Positions 4,931 to 36,716 of a stretch of DNA of 64,000 bases are shown in pieces. Position 1 is the first letter of the stretch, and every line of letters starts with the position of its first letter. The notes beneath the pieces were generated by a model. The model did not search any database. It was not told the origin of the DNA and saw nothing but the letters and a program-made list of their open reading frames with translations. Source of the DNA: Nitrospirota bacterium (lineage in GTDB: Bacteria; Nitrospirota; Thermodesulfovibrionia; Thermodesulfovibrionales; Dissulfurispiraceae); assembly GCA_963790025.1 (NCBI GenBank), contig CAWBMP010000003.1:1-64000 (forward strand), given 5' to 3'. The translations under genes and the position numbers were made by a program.

Positions 4931-5470
4931 TCAGCTATCAGCTATCAGCATTTTAAGCAGTGCCCTTGATATAGAGAAGAGACGAAGGTAACGCTCATCG
5001 CAATAATCCCTGTATGTGTGGGTAAAAGGAACATAACATTCCTTGTCTTTATTGTACGCGAGGGTAACTTCTGCAAATATGCCGTCAGTGAGATATAGTC
5101 TGTGAGAGTAGTCTTTTGTGGTGGACAGCACGAGTTTTGCGACAGTCAGGTAGCCCGGGTCGAGATTTATCGTCCGTTTTCCGTCGATAGACAGCGTGTT
5201 TTCAATTTCACAGGTTTTAAGCTTGGCTGCTGCCAGGTAGTCCTGCTCTATCAGCTTCCTGTGAAAGATAAATCGCCGGAATATCGGTTCGCCCAGTTCC
5301 TCTTTATAGTGTTCTGAAAAATCCCATTGTATTGCTGGGCTTTCCATGACCGCTTCGCCGAAGCATTCTTCCAGAGTTGGCAGTGCCTTGAGATATGCGC
5401 CCTCGTTTGTATAAAGCGTGCCGACAAGAAGCAGGGCTTTATCAGGAGGTGTCGGGGATCTTCGTCTCAT
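4931..5470 (-). CDS. DUF4416 family protein
   Basis: RTINLDPGY, LSTTKDYSHRLYL, YRDY motifs; ATG at 5470. Confidence 0.8.
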   Translation of the reverse strand: MRRRSPTPPDKALLLVGTLYTNEGAYLKALPTLEECFGEAVMESPAIQWDFSEHYKEELGEPIFRRFIFHRKLIEQDYLAAAKLKTCEIENTLSIDGKRTINLDPGYLTVAKLVLSTTKDYSHRLYLTDGIFAEVTLAYNKDKECYVPFTHTYRDYCDERYLRLFSISRALLKMLIADS

Positions 5471-5487
5471 CGGCGACTCATTGCCGG

Positions 5488-6011
5488 CTATTCGTTTTCG
5501 AGGCTGGTCAGTGCGGCCGTTACTTCCGGTGAATCCCACTGCAGGGGCCCCACTACTTTTTGCCTGATAATGCCCTTTTTATCTATCAGGAAAGTTTCAG
5601 GTACGCCTGTAATGCCATAGAGTTCGGCTACGTTCCTGTTATCGACAAGTACCGGAAAAGCAAAGCCATTTGCCTTCAGATATGCGAGCGCTTTTGCCGG
5701 GTCGTCATTGTAAAGCACTGAAATAAAGAGCAGCGCGTTGTTCTCCTTGTTGGCATTGATGAGATTCTGAATAGAGGGGAGTTCATCCTTGCATGTTTCA
5801 CACCAGGAGGCCCAAAGATTGAGAAGGACTACTTTCCCCCTCAGATCGGCAAGCCTCCATAGTTTGCCGTCGGTGTCCCTAAGCTCGAAGAGGGGGACTG
5901 AAGGCCGACCGCAACCTTTTTTTTGGGCAGGTCCTGATTCTTGGTAAGAAGTGCAACGCCGCCAATGCCCAGGACCAAGATGATAGCAAGAATAATACCT
6001 TTATTTTTCAT
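5488..6011 (-). pseudogene. TlpA/ResA-like thiol-disulfide oxidoreductase with a 1-nt frameshift (real or sequencing error)
   Basis: N-terminal TM from ATG 6011; NLWASWCETC and YGITGVPETFLID lie in another frame; total span 524 nt, one base short of in-frame. Confidence 0.8.
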
Positions 6012-6133
6012 AGAAAACGTTCAGCGCACTGCATTGTGTGTACTGAATAAAAAACGTTCAGCGTATTGCGTTGCGCATACTACGTTGTAAAGGCTGCTTC
6101 AAGGCTGTCAACGCTGAACGCTGAATGCATTTA

Positions 6134-8584
6134 CTAATTGACTGAAACCAGCATCTGGCTTTCGATCTCTTCGAAAACTATCTTGTCCGTCTTCAGTACC
6201 ACTCTTACTGCAGATGTATCTTTGAAACTGTTTCTGATCAGTTCTTCTGAAAGAGGATCTTCTATTTCGCGATAAATGGCCCTGCGCATGGGCCGTGCTC
6301 CATAAGTGGGCTGATAATATTTATTGAGCAGCCATTCTTTCACTTCAGGCGACACCTCGATTGTCAGTGCGTGTTCGGCCAGTTTCTTGTTGGTTTCTAT
6401 AAGCAGCAGATCGATTATGGACAACAGGTGTTCTTTCTCCAGCGTGTGGAAGACCACCGTTTCATCGACGCGGTTCAGAAACTCGGGATTAAAGGTCTTT
6501 TTAAGCTCAGACAGTACATTGTCCTTAATTTTCGCATATGCATCACCGGCAGACGGGATATGAAAACCCAGCGGCGTTGCCTTTTCGATTATTCTCGCCC
6601 CGAGATTGGAGGTCATAACGATAATTGTGTTTCTAAAGTCTATCTTTCTGCCGTAACTGTCCGTCAGCACGCCCTCATCCAGGATCTGCAGCATAGTGTT
6701 GAATACATCCTGATGGGCCTTCTCGATCTCATCAAAAAGTATGACAGAATAGGGCCGCTTCCTGATCTTCTCGGTAAGTTGTCCTCCCTCATCATAGCCC
6801 ACGTAGCCGGGAGGCGCACCAGTCAGGCGTGACACGTTAAAACGTTCCATATATTCAGACATGTCGACTTTAACGAGGGAGTTTTCGTCGTTGAACATGA
6901 ACTCGGCCAAGGCCTTTGCAAGCTCTGTCTTGCCTACTCCGGTAGGTCCGAGGAAGAAGAATGAGCCTATAGGCCTGTTTTTGTTCTTCAGTCCCGCACG
7001 GGATCTGCGGATAGCACGTGAAACGGCCCTTATTCCTTCATCCTGCCCTATGATGCGGTGATGGAGAACTTCTTCCATCTTCAAAAGCTTCTCCGATTCC
7101 GTTTCCTCGAGCTTGTGAAGCGGGATTCCGGTCATTTTTGAAACAGTATAGGATACGTCCTCCTCACTTACCGATGGGACCTCTTTATTCAGTGAGTCTT
7201 TCCATTTTTTATAATGAAGATCATAGGACTTTTTCATCCTGTCTTCCTGTTCCCTGACGGTCTGTGCCTTGTCGATATCGTGCAACCGTACGTAGAGCGA
7301 CTTCTCCTTCGAAAGCTGGATCAGCTCGTTTTCCATGTCTCTCAATTCCTGCGGCATCGTGGCCCTTTTCAGCTTGATTCTCGACCCTGTTTCGTCGATG
7401 ACATCGATTGCCTTGTCAGGAAGAAACCTGTCGGTTATATATCTGTCAGACAGCTTGACGGCTGCCACTACCGACTCATCGGTAATTTTTACTTTATGAT
7501 GGCTTTCATAGCGGGGGCGCAAACCTTTCAAAATATCTATGGTTGTTTCTGCGGCAGGAGGCTGGATATATATTGACTGGAACCTGCGCTCCAGCGCACC
7601 GTCTTTCTCGATATATTTTCTGTATTCATCAGGAGTTGTAGCCCCGATGCACTGCAACTCCCCCCGTGAAAGAGCAGGTTTCAACATATTGGAGGCATCA
7701 ACAGACCCTTCCGCAGCTCCAGCCCCGATAAGCGTGTGGAACTCATCGATAAAGAGAATTGTATTCTCGGACTGAAGTATTTCACGCATAACAGCCTTCA
7801 GCCTTTCTTCAAATTGGCCCCGGTATTTTGTTCCCGCAATAAGGGCGCCCAAATCAAGCGAAATAATTCTCTTGCCGATAAGGCTGTCAGGCACATCACC
7901 CGCAACGATTTTTTGGGCCAGTCCCTCAACAATTGCGGTCTTGCCGACACCGGGTTCACCTATAATGGCAGGATTGTTCTTAATCCTTCTGCCTAATATT
8001 TGCAGTACGCGCTCAATTTCATCCTCCCTGCCTATAACAGGGTCCAGCTTGCCTTCTATCGCCAGCAGGGTCAGGTCCCTGCCGAATTCGTCCAGGGCAG
8101 GCGTATTGGTTTTCCTGCGCTCTTTCTGGATGGGCTGCTGGAACTGCGGTTTAACGGCAAGATTAATAGTAAGCTGCCTGGCAGCAAGAAGGTTTGCTCC
8201 CAGGTTTCTTATGACCTTTCCGGCAACGCCCTCGTCTTCTCTGATAATGCCTAAAAGAAGGTGCTCGCTCCCGATATAATTGTGGCCCAAAAGCCTGGCT
8301 TCTTCAATCGCAAGCTCAAGTACCTTTTTTGCACGCGGAGTAAACGGAATATCGCCGAACGTAAGCAGGCTGCCCCCAATAGGGAGATTTTTTTCAACTT
8401 CAAATTTTACCTCATCTATTGTAAGGCCCATCTTTTTTATGATGGTGATGGGGATGCTGTCTTCTTCTCTTAAGATAGCCAGCAGAAGATGTTCCGTCCC
8501 CAAGTAGTCATTGTTCCGCCTTTCCGCTTCTTCCTTGGCGTATATTATAATTTTCCTGCCTCTTTCCGTGAACTTTTCAAACAT
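6134..8584 (-). CDS. clpC: ATP-dependent Clp protease ATP-binding subunit ClpC
   Basis: Clp N repeats, [23 protein letters not shown]. Confidence 0.93.
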
Positions 8585-8718
8585 CTTTTTTTCTCCTCAC
8601 AAAAACTTGTGATGTCACTGCCTATCCTAAAAAAATTCTACTTCTTTTAGATTGCTACTGTCAACTGAACAGTGCATTCCCCTTGTTTTCCTCTCCCCCT
8701 ATTATATATCTTTAAAGG

Positions 8719-10710
8719 ATGTATGTAAACGTGGCTTTTCCACTGAGAATATCTCCTCTCACTTATAAGGCGCCTGCAGGCGCTCCGGTTGACCTGATCG
8801 GAAGAATAGTGCGGGCCCCGCTTATGGGCAGAAGCATTTATGGTCTTGTCATGAGTACCTGCGAAGGGGCGGAAATGAAAATAAAAAAAGAGATCAGGGA
8901 CATCCAGGCAATTTATCAAAGCGTTATGTCCCCTCAGACCATTGCATTCATTCAATGGCTGGCAGACTATTATATAAGTCCGGTAGGTACAGCTCTCAGA
9001 AGCACTTTTTTTGAAGAAATCACGGCTATTGTGACAAAAAAGGCAGAAGAGCAGGCGGAAGCGACCATTCGCCCGGAGTCGTTCCGACCCGTTACAATTC
9101 ATTGTGAGGCGGCAAATAATGCCGTACTCTCCCACATTTGCACGGACATACTCCTGAATGAGTACCGTTCATTTCTTTACCATGCCGAGTCAACAACTGA
9201 AGAAAGATTGTTATTGATGTCGGCATTGATGCATTTGAAGGACTCGCTTAGCCATGCGGTAATACTTGTTCCTGAAATTGCCCATCTGGAACACATCGTG
9301 CCATCACTCAAAAACCTTTTCGGCGGACGGCTCTGCGTACTACACAGCAAACTTACGCGAAAGGAGACGGCCGGAGCACTTGGTAAAATTATTACAGGGG
9401 AGTCGGATATTATTGCCGGGACGCGTTCAGCTATACTCGCGCCTCTCAAGAAGATTTCCTTTATAGCCGTGCTTGCCGAGCACAGCCGTTTCTATAAGGC
9501 AGAGGAGGGGCTTCGATATAATGGCAGGGACATCGCTGTAATGAGGGGATTTCACGAAAAGGCGACGGTTCTTATTTCTTCAATCTGTCCGTCAGTGGAA
9601 TCAATGTATAATGTGAAGAACGGCAAATATGTGATGCTTTCGCAGCAGACAGAGGACAAAACACAGAAGACGAATAAAGAGAAGCAGGCCTGGCGGCCTA
9701 AAATAAAAATTGTCAGCATGAGGGGACCGGGCTCCGACCAACTGCCCATGACCCCCGATATTCTCAGGGAAGCCAGGCTTCTCGCCTCACGGAAAGAACG
9801 CTTCCTTTTTCTGGTAAGCAGGAAGGGCTATTCCCTGCTGCGCTGCAAGGAATGCGGATTTATCTTGCGGTGCGGGACGTGTAATGTGCCCCTGGTTTTT
9901 CATAAAGGAGAAGGGACCTTGAGGTGCCATTATTGCGGGTTTACCGAGAAAAGTCCGGAAGTTTGCGTCCAATGCGGAGGCACTGCAATAGAAGCATATG
10001 GGGCAGGCACAGAGCGGGTCAAAGAGCAAGTTGAGGCGCTTTTGAAAGCCGAAGCCCTGATAGTTGAGAAAGGCAGGTCTGCAAGCCGCGCCTTTGGTGA
10101 AAAGAGTTCCGATCTTGCTCCATTAGTGATAGGCACCTCCTTTGTCAAGGGTCTTACTTACAGGAAAGATGCTGGGGGCGAAGAAAGACCGTTTGGCGCA
10201 GCCGCTTTTCTGAATATGGATGCACTTCTTTTGCAGCCCGACTTCAGGCTCTATGAAAGGGCTTTTCAGGAGGTAATGGCCGTTGCCCAACTGGTCAGGA
10301 CGGACGGGACCGTTTACCTGCAGACGAAAATGCCTGAGAACAGAGTATTGCGGTTTATCAGGGCCTATGATTTCGAGGACTTTTACAGGTATGAGCTATC
10401 ACAGCGAAAGGCTTTTAATAATCCTCCTTTTGTGAAGCTTATTCTCTTCACTGTTCCTGTCCTGGAGGACCCTGGACCGCTGATCGCCGAAATGCAAAGG
10501 ACCGTTGATGCTGTTAACACCGGCAAAGTAGACATTCTTGGTCCGGTAGACCTTCCGTATCATTCAAAAAAATATCATTCCTGCATACAGCTGCTTCTTA
10601 AGGCAAAGGACAGAAATGTGTTGCACGATACGGCACGGTTGATCATGAGAGGGCTCGGGAAGTTAAAAAAAGCAAAAGTAATTGTTGAAGTGGACCCGCT
10701 AAAAATTTAA
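8719..10710 (+). CDS. priA: Primosomal protein N' (PriA), helicase motifs degenerate
   Basis: PriA N-terminal domain, four CxxC pairs, GAGTER, C-terminal VEVDPL. Confidence 0.85.
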   Translation: MYVNVAFPLRISPLTYKAPAGAPVDLIGRIVRAPLMGRSIYGLVMSTCEGAEMKIKKEIRDIQAIYQSVMSPQTIAFIQWLADYYISPVGTALRSTFFEEITAIVTKKAEEQAEATIRPESFRPVTIHCEAANNAVLSHICTDILLNEYRSFLYHAESTTEERLLLMSALMHLKDSLSHAVILVPEIAHLEHIVPSLKNLFGGRLCVLHSKLTRKETAGALGKIITGESDIIAGTRSAILAPLKKISFIAVLAEHSRFYKAEEGLRYNGRDIAVMRGFHEKATVLISSICPSVESMYNVKNGKYVMLSQQTEDKTQKTNKEKQAWRPKIKIVSMRGPGSDQLPMTPDILREARLLASRKERFLFLVSRKGYSLLRCKECGFILRCGTCNVPLVFHKGEGTLRCHYCGFTEKSPEVCVQCGGTAIEAYGAGTERVKEQVEALLKAEALIVEKGRSASRAFGEKSSDLAPLVIGTSFVKGLTYRKDAGGEERPFGAAAFLNMDALLLQPDFRLYERAFQEVMAVAQLVRTDGTVYLQTKMPENRVLRFIRAYDFEDFYRYELSQRKAFNNPPFVKLILFTVPVLEDPGPLIAEMQRTVDAVNTGKVDILGPVDLPYHSKKYHSCIQLLLKAKDRNVLHDTARLIMRGLGKLKKAKVIVEVDPLKI

Positions 10711-31788: not shown

Positions 31789-33402
31789 TTAGCAAATCTG
31801 CTTGAAAAAGTCGTTCCCCTTATCATCGACGAGGATGAAGGCCGGGAAATCCACAACCTCTATCTTCCAGACCGCCTCCATACCCAACTCCGGATAGTCG
31901 ATACATTCGATCTTTTTTATGTTTTCCCGGGCCAGGAGCGCAGCCGCGCCCCCGATGGACCCAAGGTAGAACCCCCCGTACTTCTTGCATGCGTCGGTTA
32001 CCTGGCGGCTTCGATTACCTTTTGCAATCATTATCATAGAACCGCCAAGAGACTGCAGGAGATCGACATAGGAATCCATACGTCCGGCAGTAGTTGGACC
32101 AAGAGAACCGGATGGCTTGCCAGGCGGAGTCTTGGCCGGACCGGCGTAATAAACAGGGTGTTTTTTCAGGTATTCGGGGATACCCTCTCCTTTGTCGATC
32201 CGCTCTCTGAACCTAGCATGGGCGATGTCCCTCGCAACGACAAGTGTGCCGGTCAGGGACAATTGAGTTGTGACGGGAAACTTTGAGAGTTCAGTCAGCA
32301 CCTGTCCCATAGGCCTGTTCAGGTCAACCTTCACCACCCCTTGCTTGTGCGTGGCGCGGTATTTAGCAGGGACCAGTCGGCCCGGCTTGCGCTCCAGTGC
32401 TTCCAGCCATATACCGGATCTGTCGATTTTTGCCTTTATGTTACGGTCTGCGGAACAGGAGACTCCCATCCCGATCGGGCATGATGCGCCGTGACGCGGC
32501 AGTCGGATAACACGCACATCAAGGGCAAAGTACTTGCCTCCGAATTGGGCCCCATAGCCACACTTATAGGCAGCATCCAGTATTTTCTTCTCCAGTTCGA
32601 CGTCACGGAATGCATGGCCCGATTTATTCCCTTCAGTAGGAAGGTCGTCCAGGTATTTGGTGGTGGCCAGTTTAACGGTCTTCAAACATGCCTCCGCAGA
32701 ACTTCCGCCAATAACAAAAGCCAGGTGGTATGGAGGACAGGCGGCGGTCCCAAGAGTCTTCATCTTTTCGATGAGGAACTTCTCAAGAACCGGAGGGTTC
32801 AGGAGGGCTTTTGTCTCCTGATAAAGAGCGGTTTTATTGGCCGAGCCGCCGCCTTTGGCAACAAACAGGAATTTATATTCCATGCCTTCAGTTGCATGCA
32901 GGTCGATCTGTGCCGGCAGGTTGCATCCGGAGTTGACCTCGTCATACATGTTTAAGGCGACTGTCTGCGAATAGCGGAGGTTCTCCCCGATGTATGTCTT
33001 GCGTATTCCTTCTGACAGGTATTCTTCATCGTTCACGCCGGTCCAGACCTGCTGTCCCTTCTTTCCGTAAACGGTAGCCGTACCGGTATCCTGACAAAGA
33101 GGCAGCTCAAAACCGGCAGCCACTTCTGCATTGCGCAGCATGGCGACAGCAACACCCCGGTCGTTGTCCGACGCCTCGGGGTCCGACAATATTGCGGCCA
33201 TCTGCTCAAGGTGGGCCGGGCGAAGCAGGAACGATACGTCCCGCATGGCCTGGTTTGCAAGAAAGGTAAGTGCTTCCGGCTCTATAACCAATACTTCTTT
33301 GCCTTTGATGGTTGCCAAAGAAACATACTCTTTCGTAAGGAGCCGGTACTTTGTCGAATCCGGCCCTAAGGGAAAGAGTTCATAATCATTTTTCCCCTTC
33401 AT
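31789..33402 (-). CDS. fumA: Fumarate hydratase class I (Fe-S)
   Basis: [29 protein letters not shown]. Confidence 0.92.
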
Positions 33403-33448
33403 AATCCTCTCCCGTTACCCTCCCATTTTTATTATAATAATATAAATT

Positions 33449-34636
33449 ATGAGATATTATCTTGCAAACAATTTTGTCCTCAAGCGGCTTGAGACCCCGG
33501 CCATTTACGATATCAAGGAAGACGAATTGTATGAACTCGACGAAACTGCCTTTGAATTTTTGAACAAGTGCTCAGCGACTGAAGGCTGCAACGGCGATGA
33601 CGCTGACAGGGAATTTATCGGGTACTGTCTTTCAGAAGGAATATTGTCGGAAGCGCCCGTTTCTATCCTCAGGTCCCGTCCTGGATTTTTGGGAGGCGAT
33701 TTGCCGGCACCTTCGCTGCGGTATCTTGAATTGCAAATTACAGACAGATGCAATCTTGAGTGCAAACATTGTTATATTGATCGGCCCGGATCAAACGAAC
33801 TCCCGGCAGAAACAATAATGGGGATTCTGGATGAATTTGAGTTGATGCAGGGATTGCGTCTGATGATTTCCGGCGGGGAGCCTGTGGTGCACCGCGATTT
33901 CAGGGCAATAAATGCAATGCTGCCGAAGTATGGATTCAGGAAAATATTGTTTACAAATGGCCTTCTGCTCGGTAGAGAAGTGTTGGAATGTCTTCATGTT
34001 GATGAAATACAGTTCAGTGTCGACGGCATGGAGCGCGGACACGATGCCCTGAGGGGAAGTGGAACTTATAAAAAAGTAATTCGCGCCATCGGGACTGCGC
34101 TGGGTTCGGGCATGGATGTATCGGTAGCGACCATGATTCACCGTGCGAATGTCGCTGAATTTGCTGAGATGGAAGAGTTTTTTAAAAGTATGGGGATCAG
34201 GGACTGGACTGTTGATGTTCCAAGCCCTGCCGGTCGCTTTAAACACAATACGCTCTTTCATATACGGCCCGATATGGCAGGGCAGTACCTCAATTACGGT
34301 TTCGGCGGCGGCGGCTTTCACGGCGGCGGCGAAGGGTATGGCTGCGGGCATCATCTTTTGTCCGTGCTCGCTAATGGAACAGTTGCCAAGTGCGCTTTTT
34401 ATACCCATGCTCCACTCGGCAAAGTCAGTGACGGACTGCTAAAGTGCCGGGCCAGGCTGAAGCCGGTGAAGCTGGAGGCATTGGAATGTTGCGGGGCCGC
34501 TTGCGCGGTTATTGATTCATGCAGGGGAGGGTGCAGATACCGGGCCTCACTTACCGCCGGAAAAAGTGAATGGGGAGAAAATAAAAGGGATATTTACAAA
34601 TGTTTTGCCTATGGTATACTAAAAGCCGAGAGTTAA
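33449..34636 (+). CDS. Radical SAM/SPASM protein, putative peptide maturase with RRE-like N-terminus
   Basis: CNLECKHC, ISGGEP, SPASM cysteines (GCG...KC...CCGAAC...CRGGC...C), ~70-aa N-terminal extension. Confidence 0.85.
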   Translation: MRYYLANNFVLKRLETPAIYDIKEDELYELDETAFEFLNKCSATEGCNGDDADREFIGYCLSEGILSEAPVSILRSRPGFLGGDLPAPSLRYLELQITDRCNLECKHCYIDRPGSNELPAETIMGILDEFELMQGLRLMISGGEPVVHRDFRAINAMLPKYGFRKILFTNGLLLGREVLECLHVDEIQFSVDGMERGHDALRGSGTYKKVIRAIGTALGSGMDVSVATMIHRANVAEFAEMEEFFKSMGIRDWTVDVPSPAGRFKHNTLFHIRPDMAGQYLNYGFGGGGFHGGGEGYGCGHHLLSVLANGTVAKCAFYTHAPLGKVSDGLLKCRARLKPVKLEALECCGAACAVIDSCRGGCRYRASLTAGKSEWGENKRDIYKCFAYGILKAES

Positions 34637-34738
34637 GAGCTTAGAGACCGGAGCTAAAAACCAGGGAGCAGTAAGCCATTTTTTTGCTCTTAGCCGTTGG
34701 GCCTGGACTCTTAGCTATCTTTGGAGGAGGTGTTTGGA

Positions 34739-34801
34739 ATGGTGATCAGGAAGGTCGTAAAAAAAACAGCAACTACATGTAAGTGTAAGGGTTCCTGTTA
34801 G
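34739..34801 (+). CDS. 20-aa Cys-rich peptide, candidate RiPP precursor
   Basis: GGAGGAGGTG SD; MVIRKVVKKTATTCKCKGSC*. Confidence 0.7.
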   Translation: MVIRKVVKKTATTCKCKGSC

Positions 34802-34887
34802 GTATCAATTCATCAAAGTATCAGAGTAAATAAAGCTTCATAGTATTTACTCTGACACTTTGAACTTTTTTGTGGATTTCATGGGTA

Positions 34888-34920
34888 GGGGGGCGGTGTA
34901 CTCAGCCCCCCGTTTATTTT
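34888..34920 (+). terminator. Intrinsic terminator after the rSAM/peptide unit
   Basis: GGGGGGC-loop-GCCCCCC then GTTTATTTT. Confidence 0.7.
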
Positions 34921-34964
34921 GTCGAACCCTTTGTATTTTAAAGATCAGTGTGCCATAATAAAAA

Positions 34965-36716
34965 ATGGATTTTAATAAGGCGTTTTTTTTAGTTCTCGTC
35001 ATTTTAATATTCGGCAGCGCATCATGCGCTCCTTTACAAAAAGAGGCCGGCCCGGTTAAAGAGCCTTCAGTAGAAGTCTTGCGCGTAGACACCGAGAAAG
35101 CGGATTTGGAATACCTGCTCGGCTATGAAGAGGAAATAGATGGAAACTGGGGGGAGGCCCTGCATCATTACAGCGAAGCTCTCAAGCTGGATCCTTCCTC
35201 TACCTACTTAAAGACAGAAATAGGCTCAATGCTTATGAAACTCGGGAAATATGCCGAAGCGTCTTCGATGCTGGAACAGGTTATCAAGGTATCACCAGAT
35301 TATGTCCCCGCCCTTATGCTGCTCGGTGATTTGTATAATGCTCAGAAGAGAGTTGATGAAGCGATAGTCATTTATGATAAAGTGGTGAGGATATCGCCTG
35401 ATAAGGACAATGCGCGCCTGTTCCTGGGAGTACTCTACCTGTCCAAAGGAGAGGCACAAAAAGCTGAAGACATTCTTAATAACATAATTAACAACGATCC
35501 CGAAAATATCATGGCCCTCTACTATCTCGGCACAATCAGCCTTGAGAGAAAAGATTTTGGTAAAGCGGAGAATTTTTTTAAAAGGGTCATAGAGCTTAGG
35601 CCGTCCTTCGATGCTGCTTATTTGAGCCTTGGACTTGCCAGTGAAATAAGGAACGATACAAAGTCTGCCGAAGAATACTACAAGAAAGCACTCGAAGTTA
35701 ATCCCCATAATCCATTCGCAAGCGAAAGACTCACGCAACTTTATCTGACCGAAAGGTCATATGAAAAAGCCATTAAGGAACTCGAACGTGTATTGACAGA
35801 GGCCCCCACAAATGTGGATATTCATCACCGGCTCGGGTTGCTTTATCTTCAGGAAAAACAATATGAACGGGCGCTCTCCGAGTTCAGGATTGTCCTTGAG
35901 GCAAGGCCGGCCGATATAACAGTCAGATATTATGTCGTGGTAACACTCGATGAAATGAACAGGCTGGATGAGGCAATCGCTGAGCTTAAGAAAATTCTTG
36001 CTATTGATCCGAAGAACGTAAATGCGTTTATGACGCTCGGAGCAATCTACTCTAAGCAGAACAATTCCCCGGAGGCAGTAAAGATATACCAGGAAGCGCT
36101 TAGTTTTGAAAAGGGCAAACCGGAAATTTATGTTTATCTCGGTTCCACATACGTGCAGATGAAAGAATACGCGAAGTCTGAAGAAGTTTTGACGGACGGC
36201 CTCAAGCTCTTCCCCAATAACGATGAGTTGCTTTTCAATATGGCCATACTTTATGAAAAAACCGGAAAATTCGAGGATATGGTCAGGACCCTGAAACGCA
36301 CTATCGAATTGAATCCAAAAAATGCGGAGGCGTTGAATTACCTGGGCTATAGTTATGCTGATAAGGGCATCAATCTTAAAGAAGCCTTGTCGCTTGTCAA
36401 AAAGGCGCTGGAACTGAAGCCGGACAGCGGTTTCATAATGGACAGCCTGGGATGGATATATTTCAAACAGGGACGGCTGGAAGAAGCACTGAAAACCCAG
36501 ATCACGGCCGTAAATCTTGTCAATGACGACCCTGTCTTGCGTGAGCATCTTGGCGATATCTATGCAGCTATGGGCAAGAATGACGAAGCCCTCGACGCCT
36601 GGAATGCTGCTCTCCGTTTTCAGGAAAAAGAGGAGGGGTTAAAGGAGCGCGTTGAGGGGAAGATAAAACAGCTAGGGGCCAAGAGCCAAGAGCCAAGAGC
36701 GAAAGTCAAAGAATAG
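34965..36716 (+). CDS. TPR-repeat lipoprotein
   Basis: Lipobox SASC, many TPRs, ALNYLGY and DSLGW motifs. Confidence 0.88.
   Translation: MDFNKAFFLVLVILIFGSASCAPLQKEAGPVKEPSVEVLRVDTEKADLEYLLGYEEEIDGNWGEALHHYSEALKLDPSSTYLKTEIGSMLMKLGKYAEASSMLEQVIKVSPDYVPALMLLGDLYNAQKRVDEAIVIYDKVVRISPDKDNARLFLGVLYLSKGEAQKAEDILNNIINNDPENIMALYYLGTISLERKDFGKAENFFKRVIELRPSFDAAYLSLGLASEIRNDTKSAEEYYKKALEVNPHNPFASERLTQLYLTERSYEKAIKELERVLTEAPTNVDIHHRLGLLYLQEKQYERALSEFRIVLEARPADITVRYYVVVTLDEMNRLDEAIAELKKILAIDPKNVNAFMTLGAIYSKQNNSPEAVKIYQEALSFEKGKPEIYVYLGSTYVQMKEYAKSEEVLTDGLKLFPNNDELLFNMAILYEKTGKFEDMVRTLKRTIELNPKNAEALNYLGYSYADKGINLKEALSLVKKALELKPDSGFIMDSLGWIYFKQGRLEEALKTQITAVNLVNDDPVLREHLGDIYAAMGKNDEALDAWNAALRFQEKEEGLKERVEGKIKQLGAKSQEPRAKVKE

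Follow-up and report, generated by a model that had tools for sequence, protein, structure and literature searches.

A conserved 20-amino-acid Cys-rich peptide gene paired with a radical SAM/SPASM enzyme gene in Nitrospirota: a probable two-gene RiPP-type cassette

The stretch of DNA analyzed here (hereafter, the window) comprises 64,000 nucleotides (nt) of contig CAWBMP010000003.1 from a Nitrospirota bacterium of the Dissulfurispiraceae (GenBank assembly GCA_963790025.1, positions 1 to 64,000 of the forward strand), and within it a gene for a radical S-adenosylmethionine (SAM)/SPASM enzyme is followed by an unannotated open reading frame (ORF) of 20 codons. We consider it probable, with a chance of about three in four, that the two genes make up a cassette of the type that yields ribosomally synthesized and posttranslationally modified peptides (RiPPs), consisting of a maturase and its 20-amino-acid (aa) precursor. 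An earlier note on the sequence had put this pair forward as a candidate RiPP system; comparison with related loci now shows that the peptide ORF is inherited together with the upstream enzyme gene, and the peptide is very probably the substrate of the adjoining enzyme.

Conservation of the peptide gene

A profile scan of genome contigs with an alignment of 19 enzyme homologues recovered 259 relatives, of which the best 80 loci were kept. Within the Nitrospirota, the enzyme homologues belong to Thermodesulfovibrionales and Dissulfurispiraceae. In 66 of the 80 loci, a complete ORF of 20 codons that closes with C-K-C-K-x-S-C-stop lies 3′ of the enzyme gene, and a 67th copy (L062) is cut by the contig end after 15 codons. 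Three loci (L024, L038, and L040) have only 0 to 100 nt of downstream DNA, on which the presence of the peptide cannot be judged; among the 76 loci whose downstream DNA extends to 148 nt or more, the complete ORF is present in 66, so that the small ORF to which the earlier note drew attention proves to be conserved beside enzyme homologues, always at a length of 20 codons.

Adding the copy in the window gives a set of 67 complete copies for coding statistics. Their nucleotide sequences are all different and encode 53 different peptides, with a mean entropy of 0.40 bits at codon position 1, 0.385 at position 2, and 1.24 at position 3. The start codon is ATG in 65 copies and GTG in 2. Eight residues (I3, T13, C14, K15, C16, K17, S19, and C20) are invariant in all copies, and the same residues are invariant in the alignment, into which 51 of the 67 peptide sequences were put. 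The peptide thus has two halves: a basic, leader-like stretch (residues 1 to 12), with the consensus M-x-I-[KR]-K-[VI]-S-[KR]-K, and an invariant Cys-rich core (residues 13 to 20). All 67 copies have a purine/G-rich motif resembling a Shine-Dalgarno (SD) sequence at positions −18 to −4, and an in-frame stop within 10 codons upstream, present in 33 copies, rules out longer forms of the ORF at those loci. The spacer between the enzyme stop codon and the peptide ranges from 1 to 312 nt (median, 49), which places the 102-nt spacer of the window on the long side, at about twice the median.

Variation concentrated in third codon positions, a fixed length, and a conserved start, stop, and SD motif are together the signature of a translated gene, not of an RNA element or of chance, and at the level of sequence they show the 20-aa ORF to be a genuine translated gene under strong purifying selection. 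The earlier note did not recognize the peptide as one of a named family, and neither Pfam nor NCBIfam has a model that matches it (in NCBIfam, 0 families at E ≤ 1). An exact look-up of 10 peptide forms (20 to 37 aa) in a collection of 15 billion proteins found none, which indicates that the gene goes uncalled and is not proof of its absence.

Genomic context and loci without the peptide

Clustering took in every ORF of 70 aa or more from the 80 loci. Shadow ORFs aside, no other family occurs in more than 41 of these loci, and clustering over the 80 loci found no conserved third gene that might serve as a transporter, peptidase, or target. The families that do occur (in at most 41 loci) belong to ordinary metabolism and regulation: a tetratricopeptide repeat (TPR) protein, IspE, Prs, a glycoside hydrolase family 3 (GH3) enzyme, pyruvate:ferredoxin oxidoreductase, rubrerythrin, nitroreductase, and a response regulator. 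A family of major facilitator superfamily (MFS) transporters is present in 12 of the 80 loci. Among the neighbors of the pair in the window, the TPR gene has a match in 41 of the 80 loci, as against 32 for IspE, 25 for Prs, and 3 to 10 for the upstream genes; of the 39 loci in which TPR is not matched, 26 still have the complete peptide ORF. Since the pair is kept where the neighboring genes change, the conserved unit, as read from these loci, is the enzyme gene, the peptide gene, and a terminator, moving between neighborhoods as a pair. A GC-rich hairpin followed by a T run lies within 160 nt 3′ of the peptide stop in 60 of 66 copies, versus 14 of 67 control pieces taken from inside the enzyme gene; the hairpins are conserved neither in sequence nor in position (+1 to +138 nt).

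Ten loci with at least 450 nt of downstream DNA lack the peptide ORF (L027, L034, L039, L042, L051, L055, L058, L060, L070, and L076). On a quick maximum-likelihood tree of 81 enzymes (IQ-TREE), seven of these fall outside the main clade of 73 rows, where they comprise a Thermodesulfovibrio pair on a long branch, the single locus L060, and a group of four; the remaining three are scattered inside that clade, 68 rows of which have the peptide. Peptide variants track the clades of the enzyme, with the four R-R-I-P-K-K forms making up a single clade at 100% support. A search of the 10 peptide-less loci for other small Cys-rich ORFs yielded nothing convincing.

Three of these exceptions show features of their own. 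In L060 (Bacterium BMS3Bbin05, positions 5276 to 8995), the enzyme homologue is directly followed by the TPR, IspE, and Prs genes, as in the window, with no peptide ORF in between; the peptide gene may have been lost or be located elsewhere, or the arrangement may be ancestral. The Thermodesulfovibrio loci L055 and L058, which have no adjoining peptide, share a 77-codon stop-to-stop frame ~3.5 kb downstream (L055:7810-8043 and L058:8601-8834) that contains CxxC motifs and ends rich in Cys and Ser (…GCSSCKASSCSSCK); its product is probably a zinc-ribbon protein with no relation to the peptide.

The enzyme and its closest relatives

By its CxxxCxxC motif and a PF04055 match above the gathering score (residues 96 to 244, 8.4e-17, 62.3 bits versus a cutoff of 29.5), the product of the upstream gene is a member of the radical SAM superfamily. 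The cysteines that the earlier note had singled out are borne out on alignment: the motif reads C101-x3-C105-x2-C108, with all three positions invariant in 61 aligned homologues, and of the seven conserved C-terminal cysteines C299, C315, C347, C352, C358, and C362 are likewise invariant and C385 is at least 90% conserved. Their spacing is C299-x10-G-x4-C315, then C347-x4-C352-x5-C358-x3-C362, with C385 following. When the C-terminal 116 aa are scanned alone, the SPASM model TIGR04085 scores 27.7 bits over residues 299 to 374 (cutoff, 27).

The enzyme has 72 weak matches in NCBIfam, restricted to the radical SAM core, and the best 25 all lie far below their cutoffs. Scores (in bits, versus cutoff) include WgkB, 84 versus 650; TIGR04133, 84 versus 425; ScmE, 77 versus 400; MftC, 69.1 versus 265; MoaA, 56.6 versus 284; and PqqE, 50.9 versus 381. 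For the heme-type families, they are NirJ, 77 versus 515; AhbC, 71.6 versus 650; AhbD, 71 versus 500; NirJ1, 69 versus 650; and NirJ2, 62.9 versus 500. The anaerobic sulfatase maturase model gives 11.2 bits versus 349 on the C-terminal part. Among the best 25 of the 72 matches, therefore, the enzyme reaches the cutoff of no curated family, heme-pathway families included; the heme/Ahb maturases, which the earlier note had raised as a possible nonpeptide family for this enzyme, can be set aside at 63 to 77 bits versus cutoffs of 500 to 650.

A sequence-profile search of the PDB ranks SkfB first (4.1e-23) and also returns CteB (1.2e-11, over positions 82 to 364). With an AlphaFold2 model of the whole enzyme (61-sequence alignment; mean predicted local distance difference test [pLDDT] score, 87.5; predicted template modeling [pTM] score, 0.88), Foldseek returns SkfB (9.3e-16), CteB (1.4e-14), and SuiB (2.2e-14; TMq, 0.69), all of them RiPP maturases with a RiPP recognition element (RRE) at the N terminus. 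The anaerobic sulfatase-maturating enzyme (anSME), PqqE, and the epimerase EpeE are also among the structural neighbors.

An N-terminal RRE-like domain

The N-terminal extension of ~70 aa described in the earlier note is modeled as a folded domain of ~68 residues and a low-confidence linker before the radical SAM core. Residues 1 to 68 form strands 2-5, 9-13, 17-21, and 26-29 and helices 32-41 and 54-63; pLDDT by block is ~86 to 94 over residues 1 to 70, and the domain modeled alone from a 53-sequence alignment has a pLDDT of 81.1. In Foldseek, RREs lead the weak matches of the isolated domain (TbiB1 with its leader peptide, a lasso-peptide B1 protein, LynD, SuiB, CteB, the PbtF RRE, ThcOx, and PqqD), with WW domains and other small folds mixed in lower down the list. 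NCBIfam gives the domain a single match, at 13.6 bits versus a cutoff of 45. An RRE is a winged helix in which a β-sheet precedes helices and the leader peptide docks as one more strand against the last strand and a helix; the model here has four strands and only two long helices, its Foldseek RRE matches are weak, and its co-fold with the peptide displays the expected binding mode. Taken together, modeling supports the view that the N-terminal domain of the enzyme is RRE-like.

The domain is specific to its family: a profile search of 1.84 billion representatives finds it in 119 clusters at E ≤ 1e-3, mostly fragments or radical SAM proteins of ~376 to 416 aa that carry it N-terminally. Conservation within it is highest along the acidic strand D25-E-L-Y-E-L-D31. 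On the second long helix, C60 (window positions 33626 to 33628) is invariant in 61 homologues and touches peptide residue 3 in the co-fold. Four distant relatives of ~500 aa (P0143, P0154, P0171, and P0199) have the same domain at residues ~126 to 221, preceded in P0143 and P0154 by an extra region of ~120 residues with many Cys that is either an added domain or the product of a miscalled start. A further cluster, P0168 (E = 1.8e-14 to the profile of the domain), bears the NCBI name of Methanosarcinales archaeon metagenome-assembled genomes, and from its presence among the distant relatives the wider enzyme family may reach beyond Nitrospirota.

Modeled binding of the peptide

The enzyme and the peptide were co-folded in three runs, with an enzyme alignment and a peptide alignment of our own construction, alongside three controls. 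The runs score 0.82, 0.82, and 0.83, versus 0.01 for the best control, and pass a mark attained by 116 of 157 solved complexes as opposed to 2 of 215 mismatched pairs. Partner pLDDT is nowhere below 58, and 54% or more of the contacts are shared between runs. Peptide residues 1 to 11 contact enzyme residues 19, 25-31, 33-34, 37, 52-53, 56, 59-60, and 63, that is, the final strand of the N-terminal domain and its helices, in the classical mode of a leader on an RRE and with the basic half facing the acidic strand. Peptide residues 13 to 17 contact residues 94, 139, 188, 227, 254, 256, 287-292, 299, 303, 315, and 357, positions of the barrel and the SPASM domain that include the invariant E94, Q188, D256, H291, C299, and C315. 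The models therefore support binding of the peptide's basic half by the N-terminal domain, and the proposal of the earlier note that the peptide is the enzyme's substrate gains both from this modeled binding and from the retention of the gene pair in 66 of 76 loci.

Layout of the locus and RNA elements

The enzyme gene, the 102-nt spacer (34637 to 34738) with its SD sequence, the peptide ORF, and the terminator are all present where the earlier note had placed them (Table 1). The pair is flanked upstream by genes for MutS, two HDOD proteins, a small ATPase, and fumarate hydratase and downstream by genes for the TPR protein, IspE, Prs, L25, and Pth; transporter and peptidase genes are absent within ~5 kb of the pair in the window, again in agreement with that note. 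The TPR protein immediately downstream (34965 to 36716, 583 aa) consists of TPR repeats nearly throughout; at its N terminus, a hydrophobic segment resembling a signal sequence ends in Cys21. Its gene comes after the cassette in 41 of the 80 loci, and no functional link between the two was found.

Table 1. Features of the enzyme-peptide locus, with positions in the window
Feature	Positions	Strand	Basis
Radical SAM/SPASM peptide-maturase gene, putative (395 aa, P0001)	33449..34636	+	ORF and translation; PF04055
RRE-like N-terminal domain of the enzyme (residues 1-68)	33449..33652	+	AlphaFold2 models, Foldseek, co-fold; without Pfam match
CxxxCxxC motif (C101, C105, C108), ligands of the radical SAM [4Fe-4S] cluster	33749..33772	+	Read from sequence
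SPASM domain with seven conserved Cys (C299, C315, C347, C352, C358, C362, C385)	34343..34603	+	TIGR04085, alignment
Promoter-like site in the 3′ end of the enzyme gene (TTTACA-16-TATACT with TG)	34593..34620	+	Consensus scan only
SD sequence GGAGGAGGTG, 6 nt 5′ of the ATG	34723..34732	+	Sequence
Gene for the putative 20-aa precursor peptide (MVIRKVVKKTATTCKCKGSC + stop, P0002; ATG at 34739)	34739..34801	+	Sequence, conservation
First hairpin 3′ of the peptide gene (stem-loop 34813-34863), then U run	34813..34873	+	RNA fold
Intrinsic terminator: GGGGGGC (34888-34894), 10-nt loop, GCCCCCC (34905-34911), GTTTATTTT to 34920	34888..34920	+	Sequence, RNA fold

The promoter-like site matches the consensus at 10 of 12 positions and lies within the last 45 nt of the enzyme gene, from where it could supply the peptide with a transcript of its own, and a more abundant one; the consensus scan of the region found 4 sites versus 2.7 expected, which makes this weak evidence. 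Folding of the RNA between the peptide stop and the next gene (34802 to 34964) gives −49.1 kcal/mol (z = −4.5; 0 of 200 shuffles as good) and recovers the terminator together with a second, longer hairpin (7 + 11 bp) that precedes it, is followed by a U run, and was absent from the earlier note. The unit thereby ends in two tandem terminator-like structures. A simple terminator scan did not list the terminator hairpin, probably because it permitted loops of only 3 to 8 nt. The 102-nt spacer folds no better than its shuffles (z = 0.34). Rfam matches to positions 33300 to 35100 all lie far below their gathering scores and were rejected as chance. Those to microRNA families (mir-3338, 27 bits versus 95; MIR845_1, 24 versus 81) are the only Rfam matches of the first hairpin (24 to 27 bits versus 81 to 95). 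A match to the ylbH leader on the minus strand (33365 to 33477), in the divergent region between fumarate hydratase and the enzyme gene, is also probably due to chance (24.3 bits versus 50; E = 0.015).

Proposed mechanism and alternative explanations

We envisage that the RRE-like domain would bind peptide residues 1 to 11 by strand addition against D25-E-L-Y-E-L-D31 and helix 54-63, and that leader binding would place the core, T13-C-K-C-K-x-S-C20, in the barrel between the radical SAM cluster and the SPASM clusters, as in the co-folded models. A 5′-deoxyadenosyl radical would then strip hydrogen from one of the core residues, and the radical would be captured by a Cys sulfur, to form one to three intramolecular thioethers of the sacti- or ranthipeptide type, at −2 Da each. 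In sactipeptides such a bond joins the Cys sulfur to the Cα of another residue, and in ranthipeptides to its Cβ or Cγ. With seven conserved Cys for two auxiliary clusters, one iron site would stay open, as in CteB, and could bind a substrate Cys. Because the nearest relatives of the enzyme are SkfB and CteB, the modification is by analogy probably thioether formation.

Several observations weigh against this account. In 10 of the 76 loci with enough downstream DNA, there is no peptide ORF anywhere in the ~5 to 9 kb of the locus. Thioether chemistry is argued from analogy alone, and the same scaffold also carries out C-C cross-linking, epimerization, formylglycine formation, and decarboxylation. 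The SPASM model passes its cutoff by only 0.7 bits, Pfam reports no model for the C-terminal part, and the central SPASM block reads CX4CX5CX3C, not CX2CX5CX3C (the canonical seven-Cys motif being CX9-15GX4C ... CX2CX5CX3C ... C). The assignment of the extension as an RRE, proposed in the earlier note, is weak: the best PDB matches of the isolated domain are mainly RREs, but weak ones (best E, 9.9e-3, with none at or below 1e-3; TM, 0.54 to 0.61), and Pfam finds no family at E ≤ 10 in residues 1 to 90, PqqD included, nor any in residues 1 to 100. An Atlas search with residues 1 to 88 returns unnamed clusters at 0.92 and, in addition, one cluster with PqqD in 11% of its members, which is no more than a lead. 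The calibration of the co-fold covered partners of 30 residues or more, and since like complexes have been solved (SuiB-SuiA and ChlB-ChlA), the pass may reflect likeness to those. The precursor gene is located downstream of the enzyme gene, and a length of 20 aa is unusually short for a precursor. The peptide's expression, its binding to the enzyme, and its modification are predictions from sequence comparison and modeling.

Among rival explanations, the one closest to our own keeps the maturase-substrate pair and changes the chemistry, to a C-C, C-N, or C-O cross-link at Lys or Thr, epimerization, oxidation of Cys to a residue resembling formylglycine, or maturation of the C-terminal Cys toward a cofactor. 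Such an outcome is possible, if somewhat unlikely: K15 and K17 vary no more than the Cys do, C20 is always the last residue of the peptide, the top NCBIfam match is WgkB, a maturase named for a W-K link, anSME, PqqE, and EpeE are among the structural neighbors, and the enzyme falls in no characterized family; three invariant Cys in an eight-residue core, seven SPASM Cys, and kinship with SkfB and CteB nonetheless fit thioether synthases best, although present data do not discriminate directly between the chemistries. A greater departure, which we regard as improbable, holds that the peptide is a real small protein (for example, one that is basic, Cys-containing, and metal binding or ribosome associated) that is merely cotranscribed with an enzyme acting on something else, such as another peptide, the TPR protein, or a small molecule. 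The peptide does resemble small metal-binding proteins in being basic and Cys-rich, its modification is so far a prediction, ribosomal and housekeeping genes lie nearby in the window, and not all enzyme loci include it (10 of 76 do not). Against mere cotranscription, the pair persists where all other neighbors change, the enzyme has an N-terminal domain of the peptide-recognition type on which the co-fold sets the leader, with the core in the active site (0.82 versus 0.01), and its closest solved relatives are all peptide maturases.

A regulatory leader or attenuator peptide, the translation of which senses the supply of Cys or Lys and controls the hairpins, and through them the downstream genes, would account for a short Lys/Cys-rich ORF that is separated from the next gene by two hairpins, each with a U run, and terminator-like hairpins do follow 60 of 66 copies. 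Attenuator peptides, however, mainly conserve codon content, whereas here the amino acid sequence itself is conserved (eight invariant residues with free third positions), the downstream gene varies among loci, the hairpins shift in sequence and position, and linkage is with the upstream enzyme gene, not with a downstream operon; we consider attenuation very unlikely. That the ORF is no gene at all, its conservation reflecting an RNA element or chance, might be argued from its length of only 63 nt and from the absence of the 10 tested forms from the protein collection. This reading is effectively refuted by the pattern of substitution among codon positions, in which entropy at position 3 is threefold that at positions 1 and 2 across 67 nucleotide versions that all differ, and the fixed length, the conserved start, stop, and SD motif, the lack of any Rfam family at threshold, and the unremarkable fold of the spacer leave it almost no room.

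If the two genes are indeed a maturase and its substrate, the lack of a linked protease or exporter in any context, along with the closing terminator, suggests a product that probably acts within the cell, perhaps as the intact 20-mer, by analogy with SCIFF or a peptide-derived cofactor. A bolder version, which we entertain but think doubtful, is that the 20-mer, instead of being secreted, is an intracellular molecule passed on vertically among anaerobic Thermodesulfovibrionia and related groups, in which the leader is kept and the enzyme turns the T-C-K-C-K-x-S-C end into a compact, cross-linked unit with metal-binding or redox activity; the linkage could then be of an undescribed type, for example via the invariant Lys or the C-terminal Cys carboxylate. 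Were this so, the peptide would be a peptide-derived cofactor or housekeeping factor on a par with pyrroloquinoline quinone (PQQ), mycofactocin, and SCIFF and the smallest RRE-dependent precursor known.

Relation to known systems

Should the cassette be confirmed, the genomes of a sulfate-reducing group of Nitrospirota would gain an unannotated, strongly conserved 20-aa gene, and radical SAM/SPASM enzymes a new precursor family whose leader of ~12 residues and core of 8 residues would offer a minimal model for RRE recognition and radical cross-linking. As for SCIFF, a near-invariant core without linked export or protease genes would point to a physiological role within the cell and not an antibiotic one, and such roles are poorly understood. 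With two genes and a single mass-spectrometry read-out, the system would be cheap to examine. No description of the peptide motif, or of a radical SAM/SPASM RiPP in Thermodesulfovibrio or Thermodesulfovibrionia, was found in the literature, where an earlier mention is possible in that most subscription-journal papers lie outside full-text search; in the excerpts available, Nitrospirota appear with ranthipeptides or SCIFF in general surveys of biosynthetic gene clusters only, and the available portion of PMC10288494 mentions neither these taxa nor the motif.

The system most like this one in logic, to judge by analogy, is SCIFF/CteB (Tte1186a/Tte1186; CteA/CteB, thermocellin), a ranthipeptide cassette of Clostridia. 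Both consist of two genes, for a short Cys-rich peptide and a radical SAM/SPASM enzyme with an N-terminal RRE (here RRE-like, as modeled), both combine a Lys-rich leader with a core of Cys, Thr, Ser, and Lys, and both are widespread through one lineage; SCIFF is not known to have a linked exporter gene. CteB is, moreover, a top structural and sequence neighbor of the enzyme, and PMC8172795 reports that it bears an RRE at its N terminus and that a peptidyl Cys takes up the open site of one of its auxiliary clusters, a mechanism that fits the seven conserved Cys here. The differences are that the peptide has 20 aa and 3 Cys, versus ~45 aa and 6 Cys in SCIFF, and matches no NCBIfam peptide model; that no SCIFF maturase model is among the enzyme's best 25 of 72 NCBIfam matches; that the lineage is Nitrospirota and not Clostridia; that the peptide gene lies downstream of the enzyme gene; and that the central SPASM spacing is CX4C.

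SkfA/SkfB, the system of the sporulation killing factor (a sactipeptide), is represented by the best PDB match in both profile and fold (4.1e-23 and 9.3e-16), and SkfB, with an RRE at its N terminus, forms a thioether at Cys. Genes for export and processing are part of the skf operon, none of which is linked here, and the identity to SkfB in the structural alignment is only 18%. SkfB also has a twitch domain with a [2Fe-2S] cluster, according to PMC8172795, versus a seven-Cys SPASM domain here.

The peptide also places the cassette, again by analogy, near the PqqA/PqqE-type systems with short precursors. PqqA/PqqD/PqqE and MftA/MftB/MftC likewise pass a very short precursor to a radical SAM/SPASM enzyme through an RRE, their products are intracellular (as is suggested here), and their genes are inherited as ordinary chromosomal genes; both PqqE and PqqD are among the structural matches. 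The enzyme scores well under the PqqE and MftC cutoffs, as listed above, the RRE-like domain is fused to it instead of being a separate protein, no further tailoring genes are present, and the core is Cys-rich, in contrast to the Glu/Tyr or Val-Tyr of the Pqq and Mft cores. SuiA/SuiB, which produces the Lys-Trp cross-link of streptide, has in SuiB the highest TM-score to the full model (TMq, 0.69), with the same architecture of RRE, barrel, and SPASM domain and a solved structure with precursor SuiA bound (5v1t); identity is 15 to 16%, the core here has no Trp, and SuiB forms a C-C rather than an S-C cross-link.

Set among these systems, the cassette would represent a new precursor family within the radical SAM/SPASM-RRE RiPP systems, notable for its 20-aa precursor, its near-invariant eight-residue core, and its spread through one lineage.

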